Positions 28,789 through 47,811 of a stretch of DNA of 64,000 nucleotides are shown here, in pieces. The notes beneath the pieces were generated by a model. The model saw only the letters and a program-made list of their open reading frames with translations. It did no database searches and was not told where the DNA came from. Position numbers and translations under genes: made by a program. The stretch covers positions 139,964 through 203,963 of the forward strand of contig CBDDDJ010000003.1 of assembly GCA_965226475.1 (NCBI GenBank). The letters run 5' to 3'. Source of the stretch: Alphaproteobacteria bacterium (GTDB lineage: Bacteria > Pseudomonadota > Alphaproteobacteria > GCA-2731375). How positions within the stretch are numbered: position 1 is the first letter of the stretch; each line of letters opens with the position of its first letter.

Positions 28789-29253
28789 TCAGTCTATGCC
28801 GGCAGTGCGCAGGACGCCGCGCAACGTGTCCTTGTCGATGTCGGCCGCTTGGGCGAGTAACCCAACTGCTTCATGGCGCTGGTAGCCCTGCCGCTTCAGG
28901 CTTCCGAACATGTCGACGATCGCTTTGTCCCGCCATGCCGTGCTCGGGCGGCCGGTCGCCTTGGGCGGGGCCCCAGCGGCCAGTGCTTCCTCCGCGGCGG
29001 TCCGCAACGCCTCCCGCGCGGCCGGCTTTAGCGTCTCCCGCTCAGCGGCGAGGCGGATCAGCTGGTGATATGCAGCCTCCCGGCCTCGGGTGGGCCAGCG
29101 GGACTCGTGCACGATCCCGGAGAGCCACCGGATCATCCACGCTTGTTGATCGGGATCATCGGGCCAAAAGAACGAATCACCAGGGCGCTCGTATGATCGA
29201 CGGGCGATGTCTAGTCCCTCGCGGAGCCGCTCGGCCATGTTGCGATCACGCAT
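28789..29253 (-). CDS. Hypothetical protein (154 aa), overlaps the integrase 3' end by 8 bp
   Basis: ORF co-directional with int and alpA, with no recognisable domain. Confidence 0.45.
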   Translation of the reverse strand: MRDRNMAERLREGLDIARRSYERPGDSFFWPDDPDQQAWMIRWLSGIVHESRWPTRGREAAYHQLIRLAAERETLKPAAREALRTAAEEALAAGAPPKATGRPSTAWRDKAIVDMFGSLKRQGYQRHEAVGLLAQAADIDKDTLRGVLRTAGID

Positions 29254-30427
29254 GAAGCTTCACCACCTCGGCGCCGGCGGTCCCGGTCACGAACCGCGCC
29301 CATTCCTCCATCAGCGCGCGACGGCGCTCGAACAGGTCGGACCGCGCATAGGCCTGCTCGACGGCGCTGCCGACCGCATGGGCAAGGGCCAGCTCCATGA
29401 CGGAATGTGGTGCGGCGGTGGTTTCCGCCGCCCAATCCCGGAATGCGCTTCGGAATCCGTGGGCCGTCGCCCGGTCGGCGAGCCCACAATCGCGCAGGAT
29501 CTTAGTCAAAGCCATGTCGCTCAATGGACGGCCGTGCTTGCGAGGCGACGGGAAGATCAGGTCATCATCGCCCCGTAGTGGCGCGGCTTCATGCAGCGCG
29601 GCCACGGCCGCATCGCTCAAAGGGACGCGGTGCTCGACGCCGCCTTTTATGCGCTCCGCCGGGATGCGCCACTCGCGCGCCTCAAGGTCGATTTCCGCCC
29701 ATGTCGCGCCGCGCGCCTCGCCCGACCGGGCGGCGGTCAGAACGAGGAAGCGCAGGCACGCCTTCGCGGCCATGCTTGCCGGCGATGCTTCGACCGTTTC
29801 GAGCGCGGCCGGAACCTCAGCATAGGGCAGGGCGCGGAAATGTGCCTTGACGCGCGGCATGGGCGGAAGCGCGCCGTCGATCGCTTCGCCCGCGACGTTG
29901 CCCCCGACATAGCCATGAGCCTGCCCCCATTTCAGGACGGTGCGGATACGCTGGCGAACGCGCCGGGCGGTTTCCGGTTTCGCGGCCCAGATCGGCGTCA
30001 GAATCCCCAGCACGTCCCGCCGCTCGATACGGTCGAGGGGCATCTTGCCGATGGTCGGGAAGGCATAGGTGCGCAGGGTGTTGATCCATTGCGCTGTATG
30101 CTTGCCGTTCCGCCAGCGGCCGAGATTTAGGGCATGCACCCTTTCCGCCGCCTCGGCGAAGGTCGGCATCTTCGCCCGGCGCTTTTCGGCCAGGGGGTCG
30201 CGCCCTTCCGCCACCGCCAGCCGGTGCGCGTCCGCAAGCTGGCGAGCCTTGGCGAGCGTCACGGCCGGATAGCCGCCGAGGCCGATATCGCGGCGGCGGC
30301 CGTCGATCACGATCCGCAAGATCCAGCCTTTCGAGCCGCCCTTCGCGATGCGCAGATACAGGCCGCGCCCGTCGTTGTGCATGCCCGATTCGGAGAGTGC
30401 TTTCGCCTTCGCTGCCGTGAGCGCCAT
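29246..30427 (-). CDS. int: Tyrosine site-specific integrase, P4-type (N-terminal DUF4102-like arm-binding + phage_integrase catalytic domain)
   Basis: 393 aa with the catalytic region (HGFRSAFRDWAAE ... LAHAVGSAVEQAYARSD). The gene start faces the 3' end of tRNA-Ser. Confidence 0.85.
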   Translation of the reverse strand: MALTAAKAKALSESGMHNDGRGLYLRIAKGGSKGWILRIVIDGRRRDIGLGGYPAVTLAKARQLADAHRLAVAEGRDPLAEKRRAKMPTFAEAAERVHALNLGRWRNGKHTAQWINTLRTYAFPTIGKMPLDRIERRDVLGILTPIWAAKPETARRVRQRIRTVLKWGQAHGYVGGNVAGEAIDGALPPMPRVKAHFRALPYAEVPAALETVEASPASMAAKACLRFLVLTAARSGEARGATWAEIDLEAREWRIPAERIKGGVEHRVPLSDAAVAALHEAAPLRGDDDLIFPSPRKHGRPLSDMALTKILRDCGLADRATAHGFRSAFRDWAAETTAAPHSVMELALAHAVGSAVEQAYARSDLFERRRALMEEWARFVTGTAGAEVVKLHA

Positions 30428-30569: not shown

Positions 30570-30659
30570 TGGCGGAGGGGGTGGGATTCGAACCCACGGT
30601 ACACTCACGTGTACAACGGTTTTCGAGACCGCCCCGTTCGACCACTCCGGCACCCCTCC
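30570..30659 (-). tRNA. tRNA-Ser (anticodon CGA)
   Basis: 90-nt cloverleaf folded by eye: acceptor GGAGGGG/CCCCTCC, anticodon loop CUCGAAA, long variable arm, T-loop GGTTCGAATCC, encoded CCA. Confidence 0.85.
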
Positions 30660-31667: not shown

Positions 31668-34001
31668 ATGCGGGCCGGAATTGGAGAGAGCCGACCGAGG
31701 AAGGAGGACGCGCGCCATCTGGCCGGGCGCGGCCGCTTCGTCGGCGACGTCAAGATGGCGGGCCTGCGCGAGGTCGCCTTCGTCCGCAGCCCGCTGGCGC
31801 ACGCCCGCATTCGCGGCGTGAGCGCGCCCGAGGGCCGCGAGGACGAGGTCTTCACGAGCGCCGACATGACCGATGCCCAGCCGATGCGGGCGGAATCCTG
31901 GATCCCCGGCTTCAATGCGGCCGACTATCACGCGCTGGCCAGCGGCAAGGTCCGTTTCGTCGGCCAGATCGTGGCCATGTGCCTCGGCGACACCCGGGCC
32001 GAGGCGGAGGACCTGGCGCAGGAGGTCTTCCTCGACCTGGAGGAGCTGCCGGCGGTGCCGGACATGGACACGGCCCTGGCCGAGGGGGCGCCGCTGGTGC
32101 ACGACGAATGGGGCCACAACGTCATGATCGCCACGGCCATCGAGGGCGACATGAACGCCGTCGCCGCCGAGGCGGCGCACGTGATCGAGCGGCGCATCCG
32201 CCTGAACCGCCAGTGCATGGCGCCGATGGAAGGCAAGGGGGCGCTGGCCTATTTCGATACCGTGCGCGACCAGCTGATCGTCCAGACCTCGACCCAGACG
32301 CCGCACGTGGTGCGCAAGGGCCTGGCGCTCTGCCTCGGCTGGTCGGAGGCGCGGGTCCGTGTCATCGCCCCCGACGTCGGCGGCGGCTTCGGCTTCAAGG
32401 CGGCGATGCAGCCGGAGGAGCTGGCGATCGCCTGGCTGGCCACCAGGCTGGACCATCCCGTGCGCTGGACCGAGGACCGGCGCGAACACCTGACGGCGGC
32501 CGCCAACTGCCGCGAACATGCCTATGACGTGAAGCTCTACGCGGCCGGGGACGGGCGGCTTCTGGGCCTGGACGTCGCCATCGACGTCGATGCCGGCGCC
32601 TATTCGATCTGGCCCTTCCACGGCGGCTTCGAGGCGGCGCAGGCTGGCGCCAGCTTTCCCGGACCCTACGCGATGGCGGCCTACAACTGTCGGACCCGGA
32701 CGGTCGCCACCAATAAGCCGCCCCTTCAGCCCTACCGGGGCGTCTCGCGCACCGGCATCTGCTTCGCGCTGGAGCTCACCATCGACGCGCTGGCCCGCGA
32801 ACTCGGGCGCGAGCCACACAAATTGCGCCAGGCGAGCCTGCCGCCGGCCGATGCGATGCCCTACACCAACATCATGGGCAAGCTGTTCGATTCGGGCGAC
32901 TATCCCGAAAGCCTGCGCCGTGCCGTCGCGGCGATAGACCTCGACGGCGTGCGCCGCCGCCAGGCGGCGGGCGAGGGCGACGGGCGGCTGATCGGCCTCG
33001 GCCTCGCCACCTATGTCGAGCAGACGGCGCACGGCACCAAGGTCTTCGCTGGCGCCGGCATCGAGGTGTTGCCCGGTTACGAGCAGGCCCGCGCCCGGTT
33101 GGCCCCCGACGGATCACTCGAACTGGAGATCGGCGTGCAGAGCCACGGCCAGGGCATGGAAACCACGATGGCCCAGGTCGCCAGCGAGGTGCTCGGTATC
33201 GACACCGAGCTGGTGCGCGTGCGCCACGGAGATACCGGCGAGACGCCGTTCTCCACCGGCACCTACGCCTCGCGCTCCATGGTGATGGCCGGCGGCGCCG
33301 TCGGCCGGGCCTGCGAGATGCTGGCGGAACGCATCGCCGAGGTGGCCGCGCACCTTATGCAGTGTTCGCCCGACGAGGTGACGGTCGCCGACGGCGTCGC
33401 GCGTGGGCCAGGCGCCGAGACCCGCTTCGCCGAGGCGGCCAACGCCGTCTACGCCCGGCCCGACCAGATCCCGGAGGCGGTGGTGGCCAAGGGACTGGAA
33501 GCGCTCGGTACCTACAAGACGACCTACGACCACGGTGCCTTCAGCTATGCGACGCACGCGGTGGTGGTCTCGGTCGATCCCGAGATCGGCGACGTCAAAA
33601 TCCTCGACTACGCCATCGCCGAGGATTGCGGCACTCGGGTCAACCCCATGATCGTCGAGGGCCAGACCATCGGTGGCGCCGCGCAAGGCATCGGCACCGC
33701 GCTCCTGGAGGAAGTGCCGTTCGACGCGCAAGGCCAGCCGCTGGCCTCGACGCTCGCCGACTACCTGATGCCGGGCGCCACCGAGGTGCCTGCCTTCCGT
33801 ATCGAGCACATGGAAAGCCCCTCGCCCTTCACCGCCTTCGGCATCAAGGGGGTCGGCGAAGGGGGCGCCATCGCCCCGCCGGCCGCGATCGCCAACGCCA
33901 TCAACGATGCGCTCCGCGACACCGGCGCCGAAGTGCTGGAGACACCGATGACGCCGCGCCGGGTTTGGCAGGCGATCAAACGCGCGGGAGAGAGATCATG
34001 A
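31668..34001 (+). CDS. Xanthine dehydrogenase/CoxL-family molybdopterin-binding large subunit (non-CODH type)
   Basis: 777 aa. The active-site loop reads PYRGVSRTG (an AYRGAGR-type loop), not the VAYRCSFR loop of form-I CO dehydrogenase. Confidence 0.85.
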   Translation: MRAGIGESRPRKEDARHLAGRGRFVGDVKMAGLREVAFVRSPLAHARIRGVSAPEGREDEVFTSADMTDAQPMRAESWIPGFNAADYHALASGKVRFVGQIVAMCLGDTRAEAEDLAQEVFLDLEELPAVPDMDTALAEGAPLVHDEWGHNVMIATAIEGDMNAVAAEAAHVIERRIRLNRQCMAPMEGKGALAYFDTVRDQLIVQTSTQTPHVVRKGLALCLGWSEARVRVIAPDVGGGFGFKAAMQPEELAIAWLATRLDHPVRWTEDRREHLTAAANCREHAYDVKLYAAGDGRLLGLDVAIDVDAGAYSIWPFHGGFEAAQAGASFPGPYAMAAYNCRTRTVATNKPPLQPYRGVSRTGICFALELTIDALARELGREPHKLRQASLPPADAMPYTNIMGKLFDSGDYPESLRRAVAAIDLDGVRRRQAAGEGDGRLIGLGLATYVEQTAHGTKVFAGAGIEVLPGYEQARARLAPDGSLELEIGVQSHGQGMETTMAQVASEVLGIDTELVRVRHGDTGETPFSTGTYASRSMVMAGGAVGRACEMLAERIAEVAAHLMQCSPDEVTVADGVARGPGAETRFAEAANAVYARPDQIPEAVVAKGLEALGTYKTTYDHGAFSYATHAVVVSVDPEIGDVKILDYAIAEDCGTRVNPMIVEGQTIGGAAQGIGTALLEEVPFDAQGQPLASTLADYLMPGATEVPAFRIEHMESPSPFTAFGIKGVGEGGAIAPPAAIANAINDALRDTGAEVLETPMTPRRVWQAIKRAGERS

Positions 34002-34804
34002 AGGCGGGCGATTTCGAGTACCGCCGCGCGGGCCAGGTGGCCGAGGCGACGGCATCGCTCGCCGAGGCCGGCTTCGACGGCAAGGCGATCGGCGGCGGCC
34101 AGTCGCTCATGCCGATGATGAACCTGCGCCTGGCCCAGCCGACGGTGCTGGTCGATGTCTCGGGCATCGATGCGCTGCGGCATGTGACGGCGGTCGATGG
34201 CGGCGTCAGGATCGGCGCCGGGATCACCCACGCGGGAATCGAGGATGGCGCGGTGCCGGGCCGCTTGGGCCAAATCATGGCCGCCGTCGCCGCCGACATC
34301 GCCTACCGCGCGGTTCGCAACCGGGGCACCGTCGGCGGCAGCCTGGTGCATGCCGACCCCGCCGCCGACTGGCCCTCCGCCCTGCTGGCGCTCGGCGCCG
34401 AGGTCGCCATCGCCGGGCCGGGCGGCGGCCGGACGCTCTCCTTGGAAGAGTTCCAGCAGGGCGCCTTCTGGGTGGCGTTGGAGCCGGAGGAAATCGTCGA
34501 GGCGGTAACGCTGCCCGAACCCGGCCCGGCCGCCCGCTGGGCTTACAAGAAATACTGTCGCAAGCCGGGTGAGTTCGCCGAGGCAATCGCCGCCGTGCTG
34601 CACGATCCGGGCGGAGGGACGCGGGTCGTCGTCGGCGCCACCTCTTCGGCGCCCAGGTTGTTGGCGGACGGCGCCGGGCTGATCGGCGCCGACCTCGCCC
34701 GCTGCCGCCAGGTGGTGGCCGAAGCCGAGCCCGGGCTCGACGATTACGAGTTGCAACTGCATAGCGTGATGCTGTACCGCGCGTGCAAGGAGGTGGGCGC
34801 ATGA
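33998..34804 (+). CDS. Molybdenum hydroxylase FAD-binding (medium) subunit, CoxM-like
   Basis: ATGA overlap with the large subunit. MKAGDFEYRRAGQVAEA ... GGGQSLMPMMNLRLAQP. Confidence 0.8.
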   Translation: MKAGDFEYRRAGQVAEATASLAEAGFDGKAIGGGQSLMPMMNLRLAQPTVLVDVSGIDALRHVTAVDGGVRIGAGITHAGIEDGAVPGRLGQIMAAVAADIAYRAVRNRGTVGGSLVHADPAADWPSALLALGAEVAIAGPGGGRTLSLEEFQQGAFWVALEPEEIVEAVTLPEPGPAARWAYKKYCRKPGEFAEAIAAVLHDPGGGTRVVVGATSSAPRLLADGAGLIGADLARCRQVVAEAEPGLDDYELQLHSVMLYRACKEVGA

Positions 34805-35265
34805 GCCGGGTCACGCTGACGGTCAACGGCCGCGAGATCATCAAGGAGGTCGCCGACCGTACCCACTTGGGCGATTTTCTGCGCGAGGAACTGGGCCTCA
34901 CCGGCACGCATCTGGCCTGCGAGCACGGCGTCTGCGGTGCCTGCAACGTGCTGCTGGACGGCGAACCCATGCGCGCCTGCCTGCAACTGACGGCGGCCTG
35001 CGCCGGCGCGGCGATCACCACCATTGAAGGCCACGGCGAGGATGCCCTGATGGCCGAGCTCCGCGCCGCCTTCACGAAGCACCACGGCCTCCAGTGCGGC
35101 TACTGCACGCCCGGCATGCTGGCGACGGCCCGCGACATCGTCCTCCGCCTCCCCGACGCGGACGAAGCCCGCATTCGCCTCGAACTCGCCGGCAACCTCT
35201 GCCGCTGCACGGGTTACGCGGGGATCGTCAAGGCGATCGGGCAGGTGCTCGCGGATCGGCGCTGA
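34801..35265 (+). CDS. Molybdenum hydroxylase [2Fe-2S] small subunit, CoxS-like
   Basis: Cys motifs (CEHGVCGACNV ... CGYCTPGM ... CRCTGY). Overlaps both neighbouring genes. Confidence 0.85.
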   Translation: MSRVTLTVNGREIIKEVADRTHLGDFLREELGLTGTHLACEHGVCGACNVLLDGEPMRACLQLTAACAGAAITTIEGHGEDALMAELRAAFTKHHGLQCGYCTPGMLATARDIVLRLPDADEARIRLELAGNLCRCTGYAGIVKAIGQVLADRR

Positions 35266-35831
35266 TGGAGATCGCGCAGAGCTTCACGGTCGCCCATGCT
35301 CCGGCGCGGGTCTGGGCCTTCCTCGGCGATCCGCATGCCGTCGCCGCTTGCCTCGCCGGCGCCCAGGTAACGCGGGTCGACGAGGACGGCGCACTCGCGG
35401 GCAGCATGACCGTGCGCTTCGGCCCGATCCAGGCGAGCTTCGCCGGCAAGGGGAAACTGGAACGCGACGATTCGGCCATGACCGGACGTATCGAAGGGCA
35501 GGGCCTGGACCAGCGCAGCCGCTCCCAGTGTAAGGGTAGAATCGACTATGCCGTCACCACGGCAGACGGCGGCGCGACGGTACACCTGAAGGTCGACTAC
35601 ACGCTCGCCGGTTCGCTGGCGCAGTTCGGCCGGGGCGGACTGGTGAACGACCTGGCCCAGCGACTGACCCAGGACTTCGCCACGGCCCTAGAAGCCGCCC
35701 TCGACACCGAGGCACCGCCGGCCGATGAAGCATCGCCGCCGCGCGAGGCGCTGGATGCCGGCGGTCTCGTCGGCGGCATCCTCTGGCAACGGATCAAGGA
35801 CTTCTTCGCTCGCCTGTTTGGCCGCGGTTGA
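35265..35831 (+). CDS. CoxG-like SRPBCC protein
   Basis: MEIAQSFTVAHAPARVWAFLGDP. Start overlaps the small-subunit stop. Confidence 0.7.
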   Translation: MEIAQSFTVAHAPARVWAFLGDPHAVAACLAGAQVTRVDEDGALAGSMTVRFGPIQASFAGKGKLERDDSAMTGRIEGQGLDQRSRSQCKGRIDYAVTTADGGATVHLKVDYTLAGSLAQFGRGGLVNDLAQRLTQDFATALEAALDTEAPPADEASPPREALDAGGLVGGILWQRIKDFFARLFGRG

Positions 35832-35835
35832 CGCG

Positions 35836-36480
35836 TTACGTACGTCCCCAATCTGTCGATAGCCGATGGTCGAAATTGCGTTGCCAGATCGGCGCGACGG
35901 TCGGGTGGGCCGCGACACGGTGAGTCAATGATTCGCAGAGGGGCAGGCCGTGGCCGGCGCCGTGCCAGGCGAGCAGCATGGCGAGGTAGACATCGACCAG
36001 GGTCATCGCTTCGCCGAGCAGGAAGGCGCCGGGTTCGAGGTTGTCTTCGATCAAACGGAGGCCGGCGGTCATGCGCGCCGTGGCGGCCTCGGAGATGGCC
36101 GGGGCGCTGGCGGGATCGGTGGTGAAGCGTTCGGGGTAGCCGACGCGGATCTCGGCCTCGTAGATGTTGGTGGCGAGGAAGACCATCCAGCGCATGAAGA
36201 CGCCATGCGCCGAGGTTCCAGGCGGAGGCGCCAGCTTCTTCTCGGGGTGACAGGCGGCGAGATGGATCAAGATCGCCGCCGTCTCGGTCATGAAAGTGCC
36301 GTCGGGCAGGATCAAGACCGGCACCTGTCCCCAGGGATTGATCTCGCGGAACGACTCGGGCAGCGGATTGCCGGGGCGCGAGTCCAGCCGGACCAGTTCG
36401 AACGGCGCCTCGACCAGCGTCAACGCCGCCTCGACGACGAAGCCGCCGGAGCCGTCGCGGTTGTAGAGCTTGTAGGTCAT
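35836..36480 (-). CDS. Glutathione S-transferase
   Basis: 214 aa with a GST N-terminal thioredoxin-like fold and a C-terminal helical domain. Confidence 0.75.
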   Translation of the reverse strand: MTYKLYNRDGSGGFVVEAALTLVEAPFELVRLDSRPGNPLPESFREINPWGQVPVLILPDGTFMTETAAILIHLAACHPEKKLAPPPGTSAHGVFMRWMVFLATNIYEAEIRVGYPERFTTDPASAPAISEAATARMTAGLRLIEDNLEPGAFLLGEAMTLVDVYLAMLLAWHGAGHGLPLCESLTHRVAAHPTVAPIWQRNFDHRLSTDWGRT

Positions 36481-36488
36481 TCCGAGCG

Positions 36489-38573
36489 CTAAAGCTCGAT
36501 CACGATGTTCCCATAATCGTCCAGCCTGGCCGTGGCGCCCGGCGGGATCACCGTGGTGCTGTCGTATTCCTCGACGATGGCCGGGCCCGGCAGCACCTCG
36601 GCCAAGTCGGCGCGGGCGAGGATGGGGGTGTCCAACCAGCCGTGCTCGGGGCCGAAATAGGCCTCGCGGCTGCCGCCGCCCGAGTCGTACTCGGTGCCGG
36701 CATCGATCCGGTCGGGGACGCGCGCGCGGTCGGGCAGGCCCTGGCCGACGACCTGGACGTTGACCAGTTCCACCGGCTCCTCCGGGCCGGCGCGGTGGCC
36801 ATAGGTCGTCTCGTGCTCCTGGCCGAAGGCTTCGTCCATGGCGGCGACGGCGGCGGCGTCGATTCTACCGTTGGCGACCGGCACCGTCAGCTCGTAGATC
36901 TGGCCCTTGTAGTGCATGTTGGCGGCGCGGCGGATCCGCATCTGGTCCGCCCGGAAGCCGTCGGCGGCGAGCTGCGCGCGGGCCTCGTCGGCCATCGCCT
37001 CCCAGACCTCGTTCAGCTCCGCCGGGTCGGCGTCGTTCAGCATGCGGCGGAAGGTGCGGGAGTAGTGATGCTCCACGTCGGCATACAACAGGCCGAAGGA
37101 GGAGAAGAGGCCGGCCGAGGGCGGCACCACGATCCGCTTCATCGACAGGGCCTCCGCCATGCCGGCGGCGAAGACCGGGCCGTTGCCGCCGAAGGCGAAG
37201 AGGGTGTATTCGCGGGGATCGCGCCCGCGTTCGCTGGAGACGGCCTTGATCGCCCGGATCATGTTGGAGCCGGCGATCAGGTGCGCGCCGTGTGCCGCCC
37301 GGGCCAGTTCCAGCCCCATGGGCTCGGCCACGCGCTCCTGGAAGACGCGGCGGGCCTTTTCCGCGTTCAGCTTCACGGCACCGCCGACCAGATGGCCGGG
37401 GTTGATGTAGCCGAGGATCAGATTGGCGTCCGTGATCGTCGGATCCTCGCCGCCAATGTCGTAGCAGACGGGGCCCGGTTCGGCGCCGGCACTCTCGGGC
37501 CCGATCTGCAGGCTTCCGCCGGCGTCGATCCAGCACTTGGAGCCGCCGCCGGCGCCGACCTCGGCCAAGTCGATCGCCGGGATCTTCAGTATGTAGCCCG
37601 CGCCCGTCAGCAGGCGGGAGCCCATCATGATGCCGCCGCCTACCTGGTATTCCTGGCTGCGCGTGACCTCGCCGCCCTCGATCAGCGCCGCCTTGGCCGT
37701 GGTGCCACCCATGTCGAGGGTGATGACGTCGGAAAGTCCCATCTTCTCGGCCAAGGCCTGGGAGCCTACGACGCCGCCGGCGGGCCCGCTCTCGATGATG
37801 TTGGCCGGCAGGCGGGCCGCGACCTCGGAGGTCGTCAGGCCGCCGTTCGACTGCATCAACAACAGCGGCGAGGTGATCGAGACGTCGTTCAGGTCGGCGC
37901 GCAGCTGGTTCAAATACCGCGCCACCACCGGCAGGATGTAGGCGTTGATGACCGTGGTCGAGGTCCGCTCGTATTCCTTGATCTCCGGCAGCACGTCGAA
38001 GCTGATGCAGCTCGGCAGGTCGGGCGCCTTGCGCGCCAGGATCTCCTTCAGCATTTGTTCGTGCGTCGGATTGGCGAAGGAATTCAGCAGGCAGACGGCG
38101 ATCGCCTCCACCCCTTCCGCCAGCAGCCGGTCGATGGCGGCCTCCGCGTCGGCCGGATCCAGCGCCTTCAGCACCTCGCCGTCGACCGAGACCCGCTCGT
38201 CGACGACATGGCGCAAATAGCGCTCGACCAGCGGCGGCGGCTTCTCCCAATGCAGGTCGTAGAGCCGGGGCATGCGCAGGTTGCGGATCTCCAGCACGTC
38301 GCGGAAGCCCTTGGTGGTGATGAGACCGGTGAGGGCGCCTTTATGTTCCAGGATCGCGTTGGAGGCGACGGTGGTGCCGTGGCGGATCTCCTCCACGTCG
38401 TCGCCCGAAAGCCCGGTTTCGGCGAAGACGTCTTGCAGACCCTCGGCGATGGCGTGGGCATAGTTGCCGACGCTGGAGGAGACTTTCTTCGTGTGCAGCT
38501 GGCCGTCGGGGGCGAGAAAGACGATGTCGGTGAAGGTGCCGCCGATGTCGACACCGACGCGAAATTCCGTCAT
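36489..38573 (-). CDS. Hydantoinase A / N-methylhydantoinase A / oxoprolinase subunit (HyuA family, ASKHA ATPase)
   Basis: 694 aa (MTEFRVGVDIGGTFTDIV). Confidence 0.85.
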   Translation of the reverse strand: MTEFRVGVDIGGTFTDIVFLAPDGQLHTKKVSSSVGNYAHAIAEGLQDVFAETGLSGDDVEEIRHGTTVASNAILEHKGALTGLITTKGFRDVLEIRNLRMPRLYDLHWEKPPPLVERYLRHVVDERVSVDGEVLKALDPADAEAAIDRLLAEGVEAIAVCLLNSFANPTHEQMLKEILARKAPDLPSCISFDVLPEIKEYERTSTTVINAYILPVVARYLNQLRADLNDVSITSPLLLMQSNGGLTTSEVAARLPANIIESGPAGGVVGSQALAEKMGLSDVITLDMGGTTAKAALIEGGEVTRSQEYQVGGGIMMGSRLLTGAGYILKIPAIDLAEVGAGGGSKCWIDAGGSLQIGPESAGAEPGPVCYDIGGEDPTITDANLILGYINPGHLVGGAVKLNAEKARRVFQERVAEPMGLELARAAHGAHLIAGSNMIRAIKAVSSERGRDPREYTLFAFGGNGPVFAAGMAEALSMKRIVVPPSAGLFSSFGLLYADVEHHYSRTFRRMLNDADPAELNEVWEAMADEARAQLAADGFRADQMRIRRAANMHYKGQIYELTVPVANGRIDAAAVAAMDEAFGQEHETTYGHRAGPEEPVELVNVQVVGQGLPDRARVPDRIDAGTEYDSGGGSREAYFGPEHGWLDTPILARADLAEVLPGPAIVEEYDSTTVIPPGATARLDDYGNIVIEL

Positions 38574-38616
38574 GGCGTGCTTGTTCCTCGTCTACGGGAT
38601 AGGGGGGATGTCGGGC

Positions 38617-40416
38617 CTATTCGGCCGCGATGTCGTAGGTGGGATCGTTCCAAACGGTGGTGGGGAGCGGCGCGTCACCGCGCGCCGCGACAATGGACCG
38701 GCGTCGCTCGGTCGTTGCCGCCTCGTCGATACCGCCGGCCGCGAGGTCGACGACGACGCCATAGTCGGCGAACGCCTTTTCCGGGCTCAGCAATTCGTTG
38801 CGGACATCGCGTAGCACGGCGCTCGCATCGCGCGTCAGCGGGTCGCCCCAGCCGCCGCCGCCCGGCCATTCGAGGCGATAGAGGTCGTCGCGGCGGAGTA
38901 CGGCCGTGGCCTTGCCCGGCAGTTCGCGCGTCGTGCCCGCGCGGGTCAGGCGGCTGGACGACGGCTGGCCGGTGACGCCACCATGCAAGCCGTAAGGGCG
39001 GAACTTCTGACGGTCGGAGCGAACCTGCAACTGCCCCTCCTCCTCCAGGAAGTGATATTCCCGGTAGTAGGGATCGCCGCCCCGGCAGCGCCCGGCGCCG
39101 GCCCGGTCGGGCAGCAGCTCGTAGGCCGGGATGCGCAGGGGATATTCCGCCTCCACCACCTCGACCGATTGCGCGGCGAGGTTGGCGAAGAGGCTGGAGT
39201 TGGCCGAGAGCCCGTCGGCCCAGGGCCGCCCGCCCCAGGCGCCGCAGCAGGCGTCGTGAAAGACGTAGGGCACGGCCCGCTCCTCGCGCCGGCCGCCAAT
39301 GGCGACGACGCAGACGCCGCCGTCGCTCGCCGCGCCGACCTTGTCGGGTACCATCATCGCCAGGGCGCCGAAGGTGCAGTCCATCATGCGGAAGCCGGTG
39401 ACGCCGCGCATGGCGCAGGCGCCGGGCATTACCACGGATGTGACGGTGCCGGGCGGCGTGGTGACGTCAATCGGCCGGAACATGCCCTCGTTGTTGGGAA
39501 TGTCCGCCGGCAGGATGGAGCGGACGGCGGTGTAGGTCGCCGCGGCGCTGAAGGAATGGGTCGTGTTGATCGCCGCCTTCACCTGGGCCGACGAGCCGGT
39601 CCAGTCGGCCATGATGCCGTCGCCCGATTTGGTGATGGTGAGGAACAGGCGGACGGGCGTCTCCAGGTCGACGCCGTCGTCGTCGATCCAGTCCTCGAAA
39701 CTCCAGGTGCCGTCGGGCAGTTCCGAAATCGCCGCGCGGGTCATGCGCTCGGCATGGTCGACGAGTTCCCTCATGTAGCGTTTTGCCGGCTCGGCGCCGA
39801 AACGCCCGATCAGTTCCAGGAACTGGCGCTCGGCGATATGGCAGGCGGAGAGTTGGGCGCGGAGATCGCCGAACAGCGTCACCGGCATCCGCACGTTTTT
39901 CTCGATCATCTGGAAGAGGGATTCGTTGCGCTCCCCCTTCTCGTACAGCTTCAAGGGCGGGATGCGGAGGCCTTCCTGGAAGATTTCGTTCGAATCCGCC
40001 GCCATCGAGCCCGGCACCCGGCCGCCGATATCGGCCTGGTGACAGGTCGTCGCGGCGAAGGCGATCCGCGTGCCAGCGTGGAAGATCGGCTTGAAGGCGA
40101 AGATGTCGGGCAGGTGCATGCCGCCGTCGAAGGGATCGTTCATGACGACGACATCGCCTTCGTGCAGGTCGCCGTCGAAATCCCGCAGCACCGACTTGAC
40201 CGCCTCGGGCACCGAGCCCAGATGGCCCGGCAGGGTCAGGCCCTGGGCGACGACCGTGCCCGCCGCGTCGGTGAGCGCGGTCGAATAGTCCATGGTGTCG
40301 CGCAGGATCGGCGAATAGGCGACGCGGCAGATCGTCAGCGCCATCTCGTCGGCGATGGCGAAGGCGGAATTCTTGAACAGCTCGAAGGCGATCGGGTCGA
40401 AGTCTCGGTTACGCAT
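38617..40416 (-). CDS. Hydantoinase B / oxoprolinase subunit (HyuB family), paralog 1
   Basis: Start at MRNRDFDPIAFELFKNS. The upstream 52 codons of the ORF track are judged spurious. Confidence 0.85.
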   Translation of the reverse strand: MRNRDFDPIAFELFKNSAFAIADEMALTICRVAYSPILRDTMDYSTALTDAAGTVVAQGLTLPGHLGSVPEAVKSVLRDFDGDLHEGDVVVMNDPFDGGMHLPDIFAFKPIFHAGTRIAFAATTCHQADIGGRVPGSMAADSNEIFQEGLRIPPLKLYEKGERNESLFQMIEKNVRMPVTLFGDLRAQLSACHIAERQFLELIGRFGAEPAKRYMRELVDHAERMTRAAISELPDGTWSFEDWIDDDGVDLETPVRLFLTITKSGDGIMADWTGSSAQVKAAINTTHSFSAAATYTAVRSILPADIPNNEGMFRPIDVTTPPGTVTSVVMPGACAMRGVTGFRMMDCTFGALAMMVPDKVGAASDGGVCVVAIGGRREERAVPYVFHDACCGAWGGRPWADGLSANSSLFANLAAQSVEVVEAEYPLRIPAYELLPDRAGAGRCRGGDPYYREYHFLEEEGQLQVRSDRQKFRPYGLHGGVTGQPSSSRLTRAGTTRELPGKATAVLRRDDLYRLEWPGGGGWGDPLTRDASAVLRDVRNELLSPEKAFADYGVVVDLAAGGIDEAATTERRRSIVAARGDAPLPTTVWNDPTYDIAAE

Positions 40417-40426
40417 GCGCGATCCC

Positions 40427-42223
40427 TTACTCCGCCGCCTGGGCCCGCACCGGGTCGGCCCAGTTGATCGCCGCCGCCTCGCCGTCCGGTCGGGCGGCGC
40501 GCATCTCTTGGCGGAGCTGGGCGGTCGCCGCCTCGTCGACCCGCCAGGCGTCGAGATCCAGAATGACGCCATAGTCGGCCCGCGCGCGCTCGACGCTCAG
40601 GAACTCGTTGCGGACGTCCTTCTGCACGGCCGCCGGCTCCCGCTCCAACGGGTCGCCCCAGCCGCCGCCGCCCGCCAGCTCGTGGCGGAAGACGGTGCCG
40701 CGCGTGATATCCATGGTGAGCTTCGAGGGCAGCAGCTCGTTTTCCCCGTCCGGGTTCATGAAGTTGAGCGAGGGCTGGCCCGCGCCGCCGCCATAGAGGC
40801 CATAGGGCCGGAAGCGCCGTCGGTCGGAGCGGACCTGGAAGATGCCTTCCTCCTCCAGGAATTCGTAATCGCGGCGATAGGGGACGCCGCCCCGGTATTT
40901 GCCGATGCCGGCGCGGTCGGGAATGAATTCGTAGGAGCCGATCCTCAGTGGGTTCTCCGCCTCCGTCACCTCGACCGACTGAGAGGCCATGTTGGCGAAT
41001 ATGTTGGAATTGCCTTCGAGCCCATCCGCCCACGGCCGGCCGCCCCAGGTGCCGCAGGTGAAGTCTACATAGATGAAGGGATTGCGGTCTTCATCATAGC
41101 CACCCACCGAGACGCCGGTGTTGCCGCCGTCGGAGGCCGCGCAGACCCGGTCCGGCACCATCATGGCAAGCGCCCCGAAGGCGCAGTCGACCATGCGGAA
41201 GCCGGTCAGGCCGCGCGCCGCGCAGGCCGCCGGCAGCACGCCGTTGGCGATGGTACCGGGCGGTGCCGTCACCTCGATGACCCGGAAGACGCCCTCGTTG
41301 TTGGGAATGCCGTCGGGCAGGATCGAGCGGATGGCGGTGTAGCTCGCGGCCTTGGTGAAGGAAAGCGTGTTGTTGATCGCCCCCTTCACCTGTTCCGAGG
41401 TGCCTGTCCAGTCGACTTTCATCGAGTCGCCCTGCTTCTCCATGGTGACGAAGAGGCGAATGGGTTTGTCGAGATCGATGCCGTCGTCGTCGATCCAGTC
41501 CTCGAAACTCCAGGTGCCGTCGGGCAGGTCGGAAATCGCCGCCCGGGTCAGCCGCTCGGCATAGTCGATGACCTCGGCCATGTAGAGTTTCACCGTGTCC
41601 TTGCCGTAGCGCTCGATCAGCTCCATGAACTGGCGCTCGGCGATGGTGCAGGCCGAGAGCTGGGCGCGGAGGTCGCCGAAGACCTTCACCGGCACGCGGA
41701 CGTTCTTCTCGATCATGGCGAAGATGGTCTCGTTGCGCTTGCCCGCCTCGAACAGCTTCAAGGGCGGAATGCGCAGGCCTTCCTGGTAGATTTCGGTGGA
41801 GTCGGCGGCGTTGGAGCCGGCGACGCGACCGCCGACGTCCGTGTGGTGGCAGATCGTCGCGGCGAAGGCGACGCGCTCGCCTTCGTAAAAGAGCGGCTGG
41901 AAGACGAAGATATCGGGCAGGTGCATGCCGCCATCGAAGGGATCGTTCATGATGAACATGTCGCCTTCGTTAATGTCGTTCGCGAACCGGTCCACGATCA
42001 CCGCCAGTGCCGTCGGGATCGAACCCAGGTGGCCTGGCAGGGTCAGGCCTTGCGCCACCAGATTGCCGTCGGCGTCGGCGAAGGCGGTGGAGAAGTCCAT
42101 GTTGTCGCGCAGCACGCTCGAATAGGTCGTGCGGCAGATGGTCAACGCCATCTCGTCGGCGATCGAAAAGATCGAGTTCTTGAAGAGCTCGAAGGCGATC
42201 GGATCCTGGATCTCGGTCATCGT
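40427..42223 (-). CDS. Hydantoinase B family protein, paralog 2 (tandem)
   Basis: Start at MTEIQDPIAFELFKNS. About 60% identical to paralog 1. Confidence 0.85.
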   Translation of the reverse strand, partial: TMTEIQDPIAFELFKNSIFSIADEMALTICRTTYSSVLRDNMDFSTAFADADGNLVAQGLTLPGHLGSIPTALAVIVDRFANDINEGDMFIMNDPFDGGMHLPDIFVFQPLFYEGERVAFAATICHHTDVGGRVAGSNAADSTEIYQEGLRIPPLKLFEAGKRNETIFAMIEKNVRVPVKVFGDLRAQLSACTIAERQFMELIERYGKDTVKLYMAEVIDYAERLTRAAISDLPDGTWSFEDWIDDDGIDLDKPIRLFVTMEKQGDSMKVDWTGTSEQVKGAINNTLSFTKAASYTAIRSILPDGIPNNEGVFRVIEVTAPPGTIANGVLPAACAARGLTGFRMVDCAFGALAMMVPDRVCAASDGGNTGVSVGGYDEDRNPFIYVDFTCGTWGGRPWADGLEGNSNIFANMASQSVEVTEAENPLRIGSYEFIPDRAGIGKYRGGVPYRRDYEFLEEEGIFQVRSDRRRFRPYGLYGGGAGQPSLNFMNPDGENELLPSKLTMDITRGTVFRHELAGGGGWGDPLEREPAAVQKDVRNEFLSVERARADYGVILDLDAWRVDEAATAQLRQEMRAARPDGEAAAINWADPVRAQAAE

Positions 42224-42431
42224 TGGCTTGTCCCGCTTGGTTGGGCCGCGACGCGTGGCCGGAGGGAGCATAGCGGGATGGGGCGCATGCGTCGAGACTG
42301 GGCGCGCGTGACTTCCGTCGAGGCCATTTCTCGACCAGCTTATCGGATTGCCGCTTGAGGCCCGACTAGCTACCCTGGGTGGCCGGATCCGGAACGCGTC
42401 TGGACGATGCCGGCCCGGAGGGGCGAGAGAG

Positions 42432-43718
42432 ATGGCCGAAGCCGCTTATCACAAGATGCGTAGGGACGTCGTGCCGGCGCCGGCGGGATGTCCGGTCGAT
42501 CACGCCTTCTCGCCGTTCTCGGACGCCTATCTGGAAAACCCTTATAGCGTGCTGGAAGAGCTTCGCGGCACTTCGCCCACCTTCTATTCGGCGGAACTCG
42601 GCTATCTGGTCTTGACGCGCATGGAGGATGTCGCCGAGGTATTTCGCAACCCCGACCTCTTTGCCTCCGAGAACGTTCAAGATCCGGTCTTGCCGCTCTG
42701 CGCCGCGGCTGCCGAGATCCTGGCGGCGCCCGACTACAACCCCATCGCCGTCCTCTCCAATCGCCCGCGCCCCGACCACACCCGAATCCGAAAGCACGCG
42801 CACGCCGGTTTTTCGAGCCGACGGATGGGCCTCCTCGAGCCTTTTATCCGCCGGCGTTGCGAACCCCTCGTCGATGCGATGCTTGCGCGTGGCGCGCCGG
42901 CGGAATTCCTCGGCGCCGTCGGATTTCCCCTTCCCGGCGAGACGATCTTCCGCTTGCTCGGTTTTTCGCAATCCGACGACGCGCGGCTCAAGGAGTGGAC
43001 CACCTCTCGCCTGACCTTCACCTGGGGCAAGGCGAGCGACGACGAGCAGGTCGATATCGCGCGGAAGGTGCTCGCCTACTGGCGATATTGCGTTTCCTTC
43101 GTGAAGGCCCGGCGGGCGGAACCGGCCGACGACTTCACCTCGGAACTGTTGGCCGTCCACGACGCCGATTCCGAGGAACTCGGTTTGAGGGAGGTCGAGT
43201 CGATCGTCTACGGCCTTTCCGTCGCGGGCCACGAAATCGTCACCAACTACCTGAGCAACGCGCTGATCACCCTGCTCGCCAATCGCAAGCATTGGGACGA
43301 ACTTCGCGCCGATCCGGAACTTATTCCCAACGCTCTGGAGGAGGTGCTCCGCTTCAACTCGCCTCAGACGAGCTGGCGGCGTCTCGCCACCCGGGATTGC
43401 CAGCTGGCGGGCTACGAAATACCCGCCGGCACCCAGATCTTCCTGTCGCTCGCCTCGGCAAATCACGACGAGGCGCAATTCCAGGACCCGGGCACCTTCG
43501 ATATGCACAGAACGAACGCCCGGGCGCATATTTCATTCGGCCGCGGCATCCATTTTTGTCTCGGCAACAGGCTGGCGATCCTGGAAGCGATCATCACGCT
43601 CGAAACGCTGATCGAGCGCGTTCCTTCCCTCGCTCTCGTCGCGGACCGGGAACCCGGTTACATCCCCAATTTCACTTTCCGGGGCCCCAAGGAATTGTGG
43701 CTGACGTGGTCTGACTGA
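42432..43718 (+). CDS. Cytochrome P450 monooxygenase
   Basis: Heme-binding loop FGRGIHFCLG. Divergent from the hydantoinase genes across a 209-bp gap. Confidence 0.85.
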   Translation: MAEAAYHKMRRDVVPAPAGCPVDHAFSPFSDAYLENPYSVLEELRGTSPTFYSAELGYLVLTRMEDVAEVFRNPDLFASENVQDPVLPLCAAAAEILAAPDYNPIAVLSNRPRPDHTRIRKHAHAGFSSRRMGLLEPFIRRRCEPLVDAMLARGAPAEFLGAVGFPLPGETIFRLLGFSQSDDARLKEWTTSRLTFTWGKASDDEQVDIARKVLAYWRYCVSFVKARRAEPADDFTSELLAVHDADSEELGLREVESIVYGLSVAGHEIVTNYLSNALITLLANRKHWDELRADPELIPNALEEVLRFNSPQTSWRRLATRDCQLAGYEIPAGTQIFLSLASANHDEAQFQDPGTFDMHRTNARAHISFGRGIHFCLGNRLAILEAIITLETLIERVPSLALVADREPGYIPNFTFRGPKELWLTWSD

Positions 43719-43743
43719 TTGTCGCACCCGGGGCGCGTCCGGG

Positions 43744-44571
43744 TTATGACACTGGCGCTTGGCGGCCGGGGACGCGGTCGTTGAAGCCGGGCGGCCGGCG
43801 AAAATGATGCTCGCTCGCCTGTTCGAAGGCATGCGCCAGGCGCAGCAGCGTGGCCTCGTCGCCGGCCTTGGCATGCGGCATCAGGCCGATCGGCAGGGCG
43901 TCGGCGGTGAAGCCGCAGGGTAGCGAATTCGCCGCCAGTCCCAGCAGATTGCCGATCCGGGTGTTGCGGGCATAGAGCCGGTCCCAGGCCTCGTAGCCCT
44001 CCGGCGACCGGTCGACCTCGGCCAGCGGCCGGGCGGGCCCCGGCGTTGTCGGGGCGATCACGGCATCGATGTCGGCGAGGCACCGGGCGGCGGCCTCCGC
44101 CAACTCTTCCCGCGCGCGCAGGGCCCGGAGATAGTCGACCGCCGTCGCCTCGCGGGCGCGCCTGGCGCGGAATTCATGGGTGGCGCCATAGGCTTGGCCG
44201 ATGTCGTCGAAGCGTTCGGTGAGCGCCAGATGGCCCTCGACGATGCTGATCAGGCCGCCTGGATTGATTTCGGGCGCCCGCTCCGCCTCCGGGAAATCCA
44301 GCCGCTCGATCCGGGCGCCCTGTCTCTCGAAGACGGCTACGGCGCCGCGCACCGCCGCCTCGATCCCCGGCGTCAGGTCGCGCCAGAAGATCCCGCCCGG
44401 AACCGCGAGACGCAGGTCCCGAACTTCGCTCATGGGTATTTCGGCATGGCCGTATCGTATCTGTTCGCGGGCCAACCGGAACAAACGACAAAATTTATGG
44501 ACATGGCGATCAGATCGAGCCCGAACGACCCGTTGATGTGGTCGTTTCTGGGCAACAAGGGCATTGCCCAT
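43744..44571 (-). pseudogene. Amidase-signature-family protein, C-terminal part only
   Basis: Matches the C-terminal region of AS-family amidases. The Gly/Ser-rich signature is absent. Confidence 0.5.
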
Positions 44572-45060: not shown

Positions 45061-46410
45061 GCCCGGCTGTCGAGAACATTTCGAATTGACCGCTTTATGT
45101 ACCATATGAATTGACCGCTTCTGTTGTGGTTGTTGGGCCTGTGGATAAGTGGGGAACCCGCCGTGGCGGGTTGTCCACTTATCCACAGGCCGGGCGCGCG
45201 TCGAAGCGGTTCACTTGGCCGCTCTGCTGTTCTTGGTTTCGTCGAGGACGGTGCCGTCGGCCTGATATCGGGCCAGCCGGCGCGGGCCGTGGAAGACCGC
45301 CAGGGTGCCGCCGGAGTATTCGTGGACCCGCACCGATGCCTTGACGTAATGGCGGCGGTGGCGATCCTCCGGGATCTGCAGCACCAGCCGCTTGTAGCGC
45401 ACCGTGTTGTCGTTGCCGACGATCCGGTCCTCCTGGATGCACAGGATGTCGTCGAGCGATCCGGTGAAGGGGACAAAGGCCGAGCCCTCGGCTTCGGCCG
45501 GCACCGCGAAACGGGCGTTGTGGCGGGGCAGATAAATCTCGCGCAGGAACGCGTTGGCCTCGGCCATCGTGGTGATGGCGGCCAAGCGCAGTTCCTGCGG
45601 CAGGCGATTCTGCAATGTCGCGAACATGCGCTCCGAGCGCCCCCGGGCCTCGGGGGAGTAGGCCGGGATCAGTTCGATGCCCAGCTGGCCCAGGGCTCGG
45701 CCCACCTGGGTCGGGTTGTTCTTGTCCACCTTGCCGCCGGCCTCGGGCGTGTGCCAGTAGTGCGAGGCCCGGTCGGCGTAGAGCGAGCAGAACAGCCCCC
45801 GGACCTCGATCACCTCGCCCAGGGCCCGGAAGCTGCTCATGGTCCCCTCTTCGTCGACGAAGAAGGCCGAGTAGATCTCGCTGGTTGCGTCATCCATGGT
45901 GACGATCAGGTCCCACCACTGCCCGGGAACCCATTGGTGGGTCGAGCCGTCCTGGTGCAGCATCATGGCGGGCAGGGCGCGGCGCGGCCGCTTGCGCCGG
46001 TGCGCGCCTCGCCGCGGTGCCGGACGTTTGCGCCCGTGGGCCTGGAGCGTCAGGCGGACCCAGTTGTAGCTCCGCGTGAAGCCGTGCTCATCGAGCAGCT
46101 TCTCGTGGAAGTGCTTGGCCGTGAAGTCCCAGTAGCGCGTGTCGAACAACTCCAGAACCTCCATCACCGTGTCCACCGGCACCCGGTGCCCCGAGACCTT
46201 GCCCAGCCGGCGGTCATACAGACCCTCCGCGCCTTCCGCCTCAAAGCGACCCCGTTCGCTCGCTCATCCCCAGGATCGACGCCGCCTCCGCCTGGCTCAG
46301 TCGCCGCCGCTTCGCGCGCTCCAGAATCTCCTCGAACTTCATCTGCCGTAGGCAACACCTCGGCCCGTCGCCGCCCTCCTCGAAGGCGACGTTCTAAACC
46401 GGACAGATCA
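45061..46410 (-). mobile_element. ISNCY-like element, copy 3 (decayed: internal deletions, left end missing)
   Basis: Right end and hairpin are intact. The transposase gene has two small deletions relative to copy 4, and the terminal 45 bp of the left end are absent. Confidence 0.75.
45211..46381 (-). pseudogene. ISNCY transposase pseudogene (frameshifted by deletions)
   Basis: ORF 45211-46182 is identical to transposase residues 71-393. The N-terminal part is out of frame. Confidence 0.75.
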
Positions 46411-46416
46411 CCCGGC

Positions 46417-47811
46417 TGTCGAGAACATTTCGAATTGACCGCTTTATGTACCATATGAATTGACCGCTTCTGTTGTGGTTGTTGGGCCTGTGGATAAGTG
46501 GGGAACCCGCCGTGGCGGGTTGTCCACTTATCCACAGGCCGGGCGCGCGTCGAAGCGGTTCACGCGGCCGCTCTGCTGTTCTTGGTTTCGTCGAGGACGG
46601 TGCCGTCGGCCTGATATCGGGCCAGCCGGCGCGGGCCGTGGAAGACCGCCAGGGTGCCGCCGGAGTATTCGTGGACCCGCACCGATGCCTTGACGTAATG
46701 GCGGCGGTGGCGATCCTCCGGGATCTGCAGCACCAGCCGCTTGTAGCGCACCGTGTTGTCGTTGCCGACGATCCGGTCCTCCTGGATGCACAGGATGTCG
46801 TCGAGCGATCCGGTGAAGGGGACAAAGGCCGAGCCCTCGGCTTCGGCCGGCACCGCGAAACGGGCGTTGTGGCGGGGCAGATAAATCTCGCGCAGGAACG
46901 CGTTGGCCTCGGCCATCGTGGTGATGGCGGCCAAGCGCAGTTCCTGCGGCAGGCGATTCTGCAATGTCGCGAACATGCGCTCCGAGCGCCCCCGGGCCTC
47001 GGGGGAGTAGGCCGGGATCAGTTCGATGCCCAGCTGGCCCAGGGCTCGGCCCACCTGGGTCGGGTTGTTCTTGTCCACCTTGCCGCCGGCCTCGGGCGTG
47101 TGCCAGTAGTGCGAGGCCCGGTCGGCGTAGAGCGAGCAGAACAGCCCCCGGACCTCGATCACCTCGCCCAGGGCCCGGAAGCTGCTCATGGTCCCCTCTT
47201 CGTCGACGAAGAAGGCCGAGTAGATCTCGCTGGTTGCGTCATCCATGGTGACGATCAGGTCCCACCACTGCCCGGGAACCCATTGGTGGGTCGAGCCGTC
47301 CTGGTGCAGCATCATGGCGGGCAGGGCGCGGCGCGGCCGCTTGCGCCGGTGCGCGCCTCGCCGCGGTGCCGGACGTTTGCGCCCGTGGGCCTGGAGCGTC
47401 AGGCGGACCCAGTTGTAGCTCCGCGTGAAGCCGTGCTCATCGAGCAGCTTCTCGTGGAAGTGCTTGGCCGTGAAGTCCCAGTAGCGCGTGTCGAACAACT
47501 CCAGAACCTCCATCACCGTGTCCACCGGCACCCGGTGCCCCGAGACCTTGCCCAGCCGGCGGTCATACAGACCCTCCGCGCCTTCCGCCTCAAAGCGACC
47601 CCGCCAGCGCCGGAACGTTCGCTCGCTCATCCCCAGGATCGACGCCGCCTCCGCCTGGCTCAGTCGCCGCCGCTTCGCGCGCTCCAGAATCTCCTCGAAC
47701 TTCATCTGCCGTAGTCCTTGCAACACCTCGGCCCGCTTCATCGCCGCCCTCCTCGAAGGCGACGTTCTAAACCGGACAGATCACATGGTACCTACGGCGA
47801 TCATATCGTGT
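46417..47811 (-). mobile_element. ISNCY-family element, copy 4 (intact), 6 bp from copy 3
   Basis: Same termini as copy 1. Confidence 0.8.
46560..47741 (-). CDS. ISNCY-family DDE transposase
   Basis: 393 aa, identical to 7331-8512. Confidence 0.8.
   Translation of the reverse strand: MKRAEVLQGLRQMKFEEILERAKRRRLSQAEAASILGMSERTFRRWRGRFEAEGAEGLYDRRLGKVSGHRVPVDTVMEVLELFDTRYWDFTAKHFHEKLLDEHGFTRSYNWVRLTLQAHGRKRPAPRRGAHRRKRPRRALPAMMLHQDGSTHQWVPGQWWDLIVTMDDATSEIYSAFFVDEEGTMSSFRALGEVIEVRGLFCSLYADRASHYWHTPEAGGKVDKNNPTQVGRALGQLGIELIPAYSPEARGRSERMFATLQNRLPQELRLAAITTMAEANAFLREIYLPRHNARFAVPAEAEGSAFVPFTGSLDDILCIQEDRIVGNDNTVRYKRLVLQIPEDRHRRHYVKASVRVHEYSGGTLAVFHGPRRLARYQADGTVLDETKNSRAAA

Follow-up and report, generated by a model that had tools for sequence, protein, structure and literature searches.

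Within a 64,000-nucleotide (nt) stretch of contig CBDDDJ010000003.1 from an Alphaproteobacteria bacterium (assembly GCA_965226475.1), referred to below as the window, a cluster of hydantoinase-type (hyu) genes occupies 35.8-42.2 kb. The cluster consists of four minus-strand open reading frames (ORFs) arranged head to tail, which have a high GC content at third codon positions (GC3) in a window of ~66% GC. The first, hyuB (40427-42220), encodes a canonical HyuB-type metal subunit (beta; 597 amino acids, aa) and is followed by hyuB' (38617-40416), which encodes a rare, divergent HyuB paralog (beta'; 599 aa). Both proteins match the Pfam family Hydantoinase_B over its full length (profile positions 1-519 of 519) with E-values of 4e-170 and 3e-169, respectively. 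The third gene, hyuA (36489-38573), encodes the ASKHA-type ATP-binding subunit (alpha; 694 aa) with the domains Hydant_A_N, Hydantoinase_A and Hydant_A_C, and the last one (35836-36480) a glutathione S-transferase (GST) family protein of 214 aa with the domains GST_N and GST_C_2. A first-pass annotation of this DNA had described one hyuA, two hyuB and no gamma subunit, which the Pfam assignments of the three adjacent genes confirm; a gamma-subunit gene is absent, and the operon leaves no room for one. As the gaps between hyuB, hyuB', hyuA and the GST gene are 10, 43 and 8 nt and a ribosome-binding site (GAGGAA) precedes hyuA, we regard hyuB-hyuB'-hyuA-gst as one operon. The three-gene unit described earlier is thus present, but the GST gene belongs to it as a fourth member. 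The hyuB start codon is located at position 42220, not 42223 as first given, and the protein begins MTEIQDPIAFELFKNS. HyuB' starts with the ATG at 40416 and begins MRNRDFDPIAFELFKNS, in agreement with its homologues P0121 and P0122; a longer ORF reaching back to 40572, which overlaps the 3' end of the first hyuB, was not used.

HyuA carries the ASKHA motifs DxGGTxTD, DxGGT and GxxPGP by which the family is recognized (DIGGTFTD at residue 9, DMGGT at 287 and GAEPGP at 363) and deviates from its relatives in only one of 228 family-conserved columns. By their domains and motifs, the window proteins are assigned to the HyuA/HyuB family of ATP-dependent amidohydrolases, in which alpha activates a cyclic amide with ATP and the intermediate tunnels to the metal site of beta, at which ring opening takes place (PMC8453981, PMC5214803). 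HyuB and HyuB' (hereafter B and B', with A for HyuA) are 65% identical over 593 residues by BLASTP, somewhat more than the approximately 60% estimated initially. We found that hyuB-hyuB'-hyuA is a real three-gene variant of this known enzyme family, both conserved and very rare.

The rarity of this arrangement becomes apparent from a comparison with the canonical B family, which is large and uniform and includes thousands of proteins 71-92% identical to B of the window. B and A homologues were mapped in 80 species-representative genome loci of this family, mostly from metagenome-assembled genomes of Alpha-, Beta- and Gammaproteobacteria. All 80 loci contain a single B, which is directly followed by A wherever a hyuA of the same subfamily was detected (the loci without one are mostly short or truncated contigs), and a second B of the canonical subfamily was found in none of the 80. 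Furthermore, the literature lists only three gene sets for this enzyme family, namely alpha-beta, alpha-beta-gamma (acetone carboxylase) and alpha-alpha'-beta-gamma-epsilon (acetophenone carboxylase) (PMC5214803, PMC8453981), and nothing relevant on two-HyuB enzymes, hyuB1/hyuB2 or HyuB paralogs was found in the literature that could be searched. The gene composition is therefore unusual, as initially proposed, and a known two-B enzyme class, which had been named as a possible home for the pair, was looked for in the same literature and not found.

Close relatives of B' are limited to P0121 (99% identical), P0122 (84%) and the partial P0124 (96% over 67% of B'), after which identities drop to at most 67%. 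When 5.8 billion proteins were searched with a profile of three B' lineages, B' members scored 1252-1309 bits and the next protein 1036 bits. B' is known from these three lineages only, and in every case it lies between canonical B and A genes on one strand. The first is the window organism with five assemblies, the window and four other public assemblies (L001-L004) that carry the four-gene unit at 99-100% identity. The second is represented by locus L005, whose B, B' and A are 92%, 84% and 91% identical to the window proteins and which has the same GST and molybdenum hydroxylase neighbours. The third comprises L009-L011, in which B and B' are separated by a PIN/Phd toxin-antitoxin pair. The gene order B-B'-A is kept in both L005 and L009, and in L005, as in the window, B' starts 10-12 nt past the stop codon of B. 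In L009, the PIN/PhdYeFM toxin-antitoxin pair (6352-7058, minus strand) separates B from B' by ~900 nt, and a 75-aa ORF is located between B' and A. A strict B' DNA motif had no matches in JGI metagenome contigs, a relaxed motif matched only a 46%-identical subfamily, and the best B' match among PLSDB plasmids was 46% identical. The closest single-B relative, L006 (B 90% identical), has the gene order B-A-GST with a gap of 103 nt between B and A and contains no trace of B'.

Tandem short HyuB-only genes (544 and 551 aa), located for example at 15499-18785 (minus strand) in L006, were observed in L006, L007, L008 and L012. The two proteins share 63% identity with each other and 33% with B, both possess the D-H-D-H metal tetrad, and HyuA is not adjacent. 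This represents a different kind of two-B locus, and HyuB heterodimers may be more general.

The B' ORFs are full length in all three lineages (67-84% identical to one another) and contain neither frameshifts nor stop codons. Between the window and L005, the ratio of nonsynonymous to synonymous substitution rates (dN/dS) reaches 0.22 for B', compared with 0.10 for B and 0.14 for A, showing that B' is under purifying selection, which is about twofold relaxed relative to B. The metal-binding tetrad D42/H100/D103/H125 of B corresponds to D43/H101/D104/H126 of B' and is present in every B' protein, including P0122 and P0123. The equivalent residues of the caprolactamase subunit CapB (D41, H99, D102 and H124) are essential, and their mutants are inactive (PMC8453981). 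An inactivating change in one of the paralogs, which the first-pass annotation had taken as the mark of a decaying duplicate, was looked for, and none was found in B'. In addition, the fold of B' is predicted to be HyuB-like, as its AlphaFold model (predicted local distance difference test score, pLDDT, 77; predicted template modelling score, pTM, 0.80) significantly matched only HyuB-fold chains (9h03, 6yra_B, 5l9w_A and 5m45_A) with template modelling scores of 0.77-0.84.

B' differs from the canonical family at many positions that are otherwise nearly invariant (residues are given in B numbering; B' numbering is one higher at the metal tetrad). Among 249 columns that are at least 97% conserved across 79 canonical B proteins, the leave-one-out family mean is 1.7 changes with a maximum of 7. 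B of the window has four changes and B of L006 none, whereas B' proteins have 26-35 (31 in the window). All three B' lineages deviate in fifteen of these columns, and in ten of the fifteen they carry the same new residue; this ten-state signature is complete in seven B' sequences from the three lineages compared with 0-1 of the ten states in 258 canonical sequences. Pocket positions were placed through the alignment of B with CapB and the published list of CapB pocket residues (PMC8453981). Seven of the 15 B'-wide changes are located at or next to pocket or ligand positions, compared with 35 of the 249 background columns (hypergeometric P=0.0017). Three are direct pocket positions, N137M (equivalent to CapB Tyr136, a proposed acid/base residue), L338V (CapB Thr336) and N367V (CapB Ala365), while the changed columns N40, H126, G369 and F387 adjoin pocket or ligand residues, H126 being the neighbour of ligand H125. 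Pocket replacements at the latter include H126Q, G369V and F387A, and the less conserved pocket positions T388C/S, T391A and M411L also differ. The pocket residues D39, L61, G63, F341 and N404 are strictly kept in the three B' lineages. Judged from these substitutions, the net effect is a B' pocket predicted to be less polar around an unchanged metal site.

The origin of B' was investigated with neighbour-joining trees (100 bootstraps) containing four outgroups, three sequences of the 46%-identical subfamily and CapB, and with an unrooted version. The three B' lineages were monophyletic in 96 of 100 bootstraps, and the canonical family was monophyletic with B' outside in all 100. By these trees, B' is sister to the canonical B family as a whole and apparently old, and its clade is estimated to be at least as old as the radiation of that family. 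The initial description of the two genes as tandem, diverged paralogs suggests a local duplication, which is not supported. A recent tandem duplication was rejected because B' branches outside the whole canonical clade. Furthermore, six states are specific to the subclade of B in the window and 63 to that of B in L009; B' has none of the former and three of the latter. Gene conversion between B and B' was not supported either, as identical runs are only 48-49 nt long and located at two invariant motifs in a GC3-biased genome, with an overall nucleotide identity of 72%. B and B' of the window and of L005 all carry S139A, in the segment corresponding to the CapB beta-beta interface, a change missing from L006 and at least 97% of the family. 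Together with the 48-49 nt identical runs, this sharing could reflect co-adaptation or micro gene conversion. Outside their own subclades, HyuA of the window and HyuA of L009 are each other's nearest relatives, which weakly suggests that the three-gene unit had a common origin followed by many losses.

Some of the signature states of B' also occur in outgroups. A32/S32, I36 and P134 are common to B' and the outgroup subfamilies (L093-L095, a Paracoccus versutus plasmid gene and CapB), and Q126 and M137 are also present in one outgroup, the separate 46%-identical HyuB subfamily of three members. An interpretation of the ten states as purely derived or convergent was partly withdrawn given this sharing. 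Several of them are probably ancestral, which fits the basal position of B'. One of the three subfamily members, L094, encodes a partial hyuA (56% identical to A of the window) just upstream, and M137 and Q126 are therefore probably compatible with activity.

These results bear on two explanations of B'. It is highly improbable that B' is a redundant duplicate heading for loss without a distinct role, and this explanation has been largely refuted. The absence of B' from L006 and from all 80 sampled species representatives, its surroundings rich in insertion sequences (IS) and the lower identity between the window and L005 for B' (84%) than for B (92%) would be in line with decay. However, full-length intact ORFs in three lineages at 67-84% identity, the retained metal ligands without frameshifts or stops, a dN/dS far below 1 and a clade age at least that of the canonical radiation argue against it. 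B' could also be a non-catalytic pseudo-enzyme, which retains fold and metal for stability and modulates or scaffolds the A-B enzyme, an explanation that we consider quite unlikely. It would account for the large number of changed near-invariant columns (31-35 of 249, where the family averages 1.7 and does not exceed 7), for their clustering around the active site, including the CapB Tyr136 equivalent and the neighbour of ligand H125 (PMC8453981), and for the approximately twofold more relaxed selection. Moreover, CapB metal-site mutants are less thermostable (PMC8453981), so that the tetrad could serve folding alone. Contrastingly, the four ligands as well as D39, L61, G63, F341 and N404 are strictly kept in lineages down to 67% identity, the B'-specific pocket states are conserved among lineages as expected of a defined new binding site, and M137 and Q126 recur in another HyuB subfamily with a member, L094, that has a partial hyuA just upstream.

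In our preferred reading, which we hold with about even confidence, B' would function as a second catalytic subunit on the same alpha, probably in mixed A-B-B'-A tetramers. A beta2 core within an A-B-B-A tetramer has been reported for caprolactamase (CapAB), acetone carboxylase (Acx) and acetophenone carboxylase (Apc) (PMC8453981). With regard to assembly, catalytic competence and substrate, we infer that a normal alpha and a normal beta would be joined by beta', which retains the four metal ligands and would also retain the regions through which CapB contacts alpha and the other beta, with a pocket that would be lined differently and less polar. In such a mixed tetramer, two different hydrolytic sites would be served by one kind of ATPase subunit, and the beta' site could handle a second, more hydrophobic substrate or intermediate. 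Conservation of the beta-beta contact region and the location of the two genes 10 nt apart in one operon would make mixed tetramers the likeliest form. In the interface segment (residues 130-175), the excess divergence of B' over the canonical family is close to average (1.43 compared with 1.49 overall) and its absolute divergence is 0.290 compared with 0.385 overall, placing this segment among the least diverged parts of the protein. A stricter form of this proposal, in which B and B' constitute an obligate asymmetric A-B-B'-A complex with one activating subunit feeding two chemically different metal sites, seems rather unlikely. If true, the enzyme could combine two ring-opening or group-transfer steps on one pathway, acting for instance on a substrate as well as on a hydroxylated or bicyclic derivative of it.

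The same evidence for a functional B' with an altered pocket would also support separate isozymes, A2B2 and A2B'2, which draw on one pool of A without ever mixing and represent two enzymes of different specificity. We regard this arrangement as doubtful. B and B' of L009 are separated by ~900 nt and a toxin-antitoxin pair, so that tight co-translation is not required, and S139A, A134P and N137M in the segment equivalent to the CapB beta-beta interface could bias pairing. On the other hand, segment 130-175 is among the least diverged of B', leaving nothing obvious to prevent mixing, and B' starts 10-12 nt past the stop codon of B in the window and L005. It is very unlikely that B' works with an ATPase subunit encoded elsewhere, or with none, and that its adjacency to hyuA is incidental. 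HyuB-only tandem pairs without an adjacent HyuA do exist (544/551 aa, L006-L008), and excess divergence in B' peaks in the N-terminal helix, through which CapB contacts alpha. However, B' is located between B and A on the same strand in all three independent lineages, and a second hyuA was not found within 10 kb in L001, L005 and L009.

Several observations weigh against B' as a second catalytic subunit on the shared alpha. The phylogeny is based on distance (neighbour-joining) trees only, which may be affected by long-branch attraction toward the outgroup. The template for pocket and interface positions was a 4.0 Å structure of CapB, which is only ~30% identical, and AlphaFold confidence is low in the active-site loops of B' (128-148 and 392-414). 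Position 137 corresponds to Tyr136 of CapB, the only proposed acid/base residue, and the replacement of Asn by Met might abolish the canonical chemistry. The excess divergence of B' is largest in the N-terminal helix (ratio 2.19), and alpha binding could therefore be altered. Finally, nearly all relatives lack B', whether through loss or because it was never acquired; L006, the closest of them, is among these, so that the canonical function does not require B'.

The hydantoinase/oxoprolinase/ketone-carboxylase family is large and poorly characterized, and it is of biotechnological interest for the hydrolysis of lactams and nylon monomers and for ATP-driven carboxylation. As a natural experiment, the operon pairs the same alpha with two betas that differ mainly around the pocket, and the comparison of beta with beta' marks residues 126, 137, 338, 367, 369, 387, 388 and 391 as candidates for setting the specificity of the metal subunit. 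The practical value is limited, as the class is confined to three uncultured lineages.

The region upstream of hyuB (42221-42431), located between hyuB and a divergently transcribed cytochrome P450 gene (42432-43718, plus strand; Pfam p450), is presumed from the gene positions to contain the promoter. A scan of 35000-44000 for promoters and terminators returned a single sigma-70-like site at 36862-36890, outside this region. On the other side, the operon converges with genes for a CoxL/CoxM/CoxS/CoxG-type molybdenum hydroxylase (31668-35831, plus strand; Pfam Ald_Xan_dh_C, MoCoBD_1/2, FAD_binding_5, Fer2/Fer2_2 and COXG). This CoxLMS-type enzyme could, we infer, produce a lactam by hydroxylation next to a ring nitrogen, and the molybdenum hydroxylase, P450, GST and amidase neighbours together hint at the catabolism of N-heterocycles or lactams. 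The molybdenum hydroxylase genes are adjacent in the window and L005 only and absent at L006 and L009; given their absence in L009, the link to the B' operon is not general. In L005 (17065-21800), an IS21 element interrupts CoxL of this neighbouring hydroxylase. The P450 gene is found beside the hyu unit in the window lineage only. The GST gene follows hyuA also in L005 and in the single-B relative L006, and the window subclade carries it, 8 nt past the hyuA stop codon in the window, where canonical loci often carry a TRAP transporter. Such transporters (DctP/Q/M) were found near ~30 of 72 canonical B-A loci (L013-L091), downstream on the opposite strand, and a D-serine-dehydratase-like pyridoxal phosphate enzyme is encoded in seven canonical loci. 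These neighbours suggest that the canonical enzyme acts on a carboxylate-bearing substrate.

Insertion sequences are abundant in the left half of the window. Three IS21-family copies (14575-16853 and 23139-25417 on the plus strand, 25586-27675 on the minus strand) have the same ORF lengths and codon composition, each encoding an IstA-like protein of 504 aa and an IstB protein of 295 aa, and a fourth, diverged IS21 is located at 18274-20588 (minus strand). A tRNA-Ser(cga) gene (30570-30659) is directly followed by a phage-type integrase gene (29246-30427, minus strand), which is a classic boundary of an integrated island; the IS-rich stretch and the hyu cluster lie on opposite sides of it, the former on that of the integrase. 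Beyond the P450 gene, a truncated C-terminal amidase fragment adjoins an ISNCY transposase gene (43744-44433 and 45211-46182, minus strand). Two transposase ORFs of the helix-turn-helix type (IS481/IS630-like; 393 aa) at 46560-47741 (minus strand) and 7331-8512 (plus strand) have identical Pfam matches and scores and are probably two copies of one gene. A molybdopterin oxidoreductase gene (61134-63506, minus strand) is split by a single in-frame TAG at 62916-62918, with the frame reading on as MA*ANGAKLIVMDPR. This TAG, which is not a TGA selenocysteine codon, probably arose by nonsense mutation or from a sequencing error.

Among characterized enzymes, the best PDB and NCBIfam matches of the window proteins belong to the group of CapAB (caprolactamase of Pseudomonas jessenii, PDB 6YRA) and N-methylhydantoinase of the Hyd(alpha-beta)2 type, with which they share domains, ASKHA motifs and the Asp-His-Asp-His site. 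The B-then-A gene order corresponds to that of capBA, subunit sizes are similar (694 and ~598 aa), and a gamma subunit is absent. However, enzymes of this type are encoded by two genes and form an (alpha-beta)2 complex (PMC5214803), whereas the window operon has three hyu genes including a divergent second beta-type subunit. CapB is ~30% identical to B of the window, and its vicinal Cys410-Cys411 is replaced by N406/I407 in B and by S/L in B'. Against the CapAB equivalogs NF050156/NF050157, A scored 560.5, B 307.6 and B' 298.8 bits, all far below the cut-off of 1000 bits. Homologues are labelled 'N-methylhydantoinase B' in JGI, and the solved N-methylhydantoinase (7hk5/9h03) is a fused protein of 1288 aa with ~32% identity.

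Acx ((alpha-beta-gamma)2, PDB 5M45 and 5SVB) shares the two core folds and has an equivalent site composed of Glu89/His150/Asp153/His175 (PMC8453981). In contrast to the window enzyme, it requires gamma, and its beta-type subunit has 776 aa with Glu as the first ligand, while B and B' have 597 and 599 aa with Asp and no gamma gene is present; similarity is low (PDB 5m45_A, E 1.8e-16). IaaCE, the 2-oxoindoleacetate hydrolase of the anaerobic indoleacetate pathway, can be likened by description as a HyuAB-type enzyme for which ATP-dependent opening of an N-heterocyclic lactam has been proposed (PMC8453981), but it consists of two subunits only, compared with the three hyu genes of the window operon.

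Apc is the only characterized member of the family that contains two diverged paralogs of a core subunit type, each with its own task (PMC5214803, PMC8453981). Its similarity to the window proteins is low (E 1.9e-44, 21% identity at the fold level), and scores against its NCBIfam equivalogs (ApcC 306, ApcA 232 and ApcD 132-167 bits) remain below the cut-offs of 1250-1500 bits. Furthermore, Apc needs gamma and epsilon, whereas the window operon has neither and only one hyuA. A conserved alpha-beta-beta' gene set would add a fourth subunit scheme to the family, in which the metal-binding beta is doubled in place of the ATP-binding alpha that is doubled in Apc.

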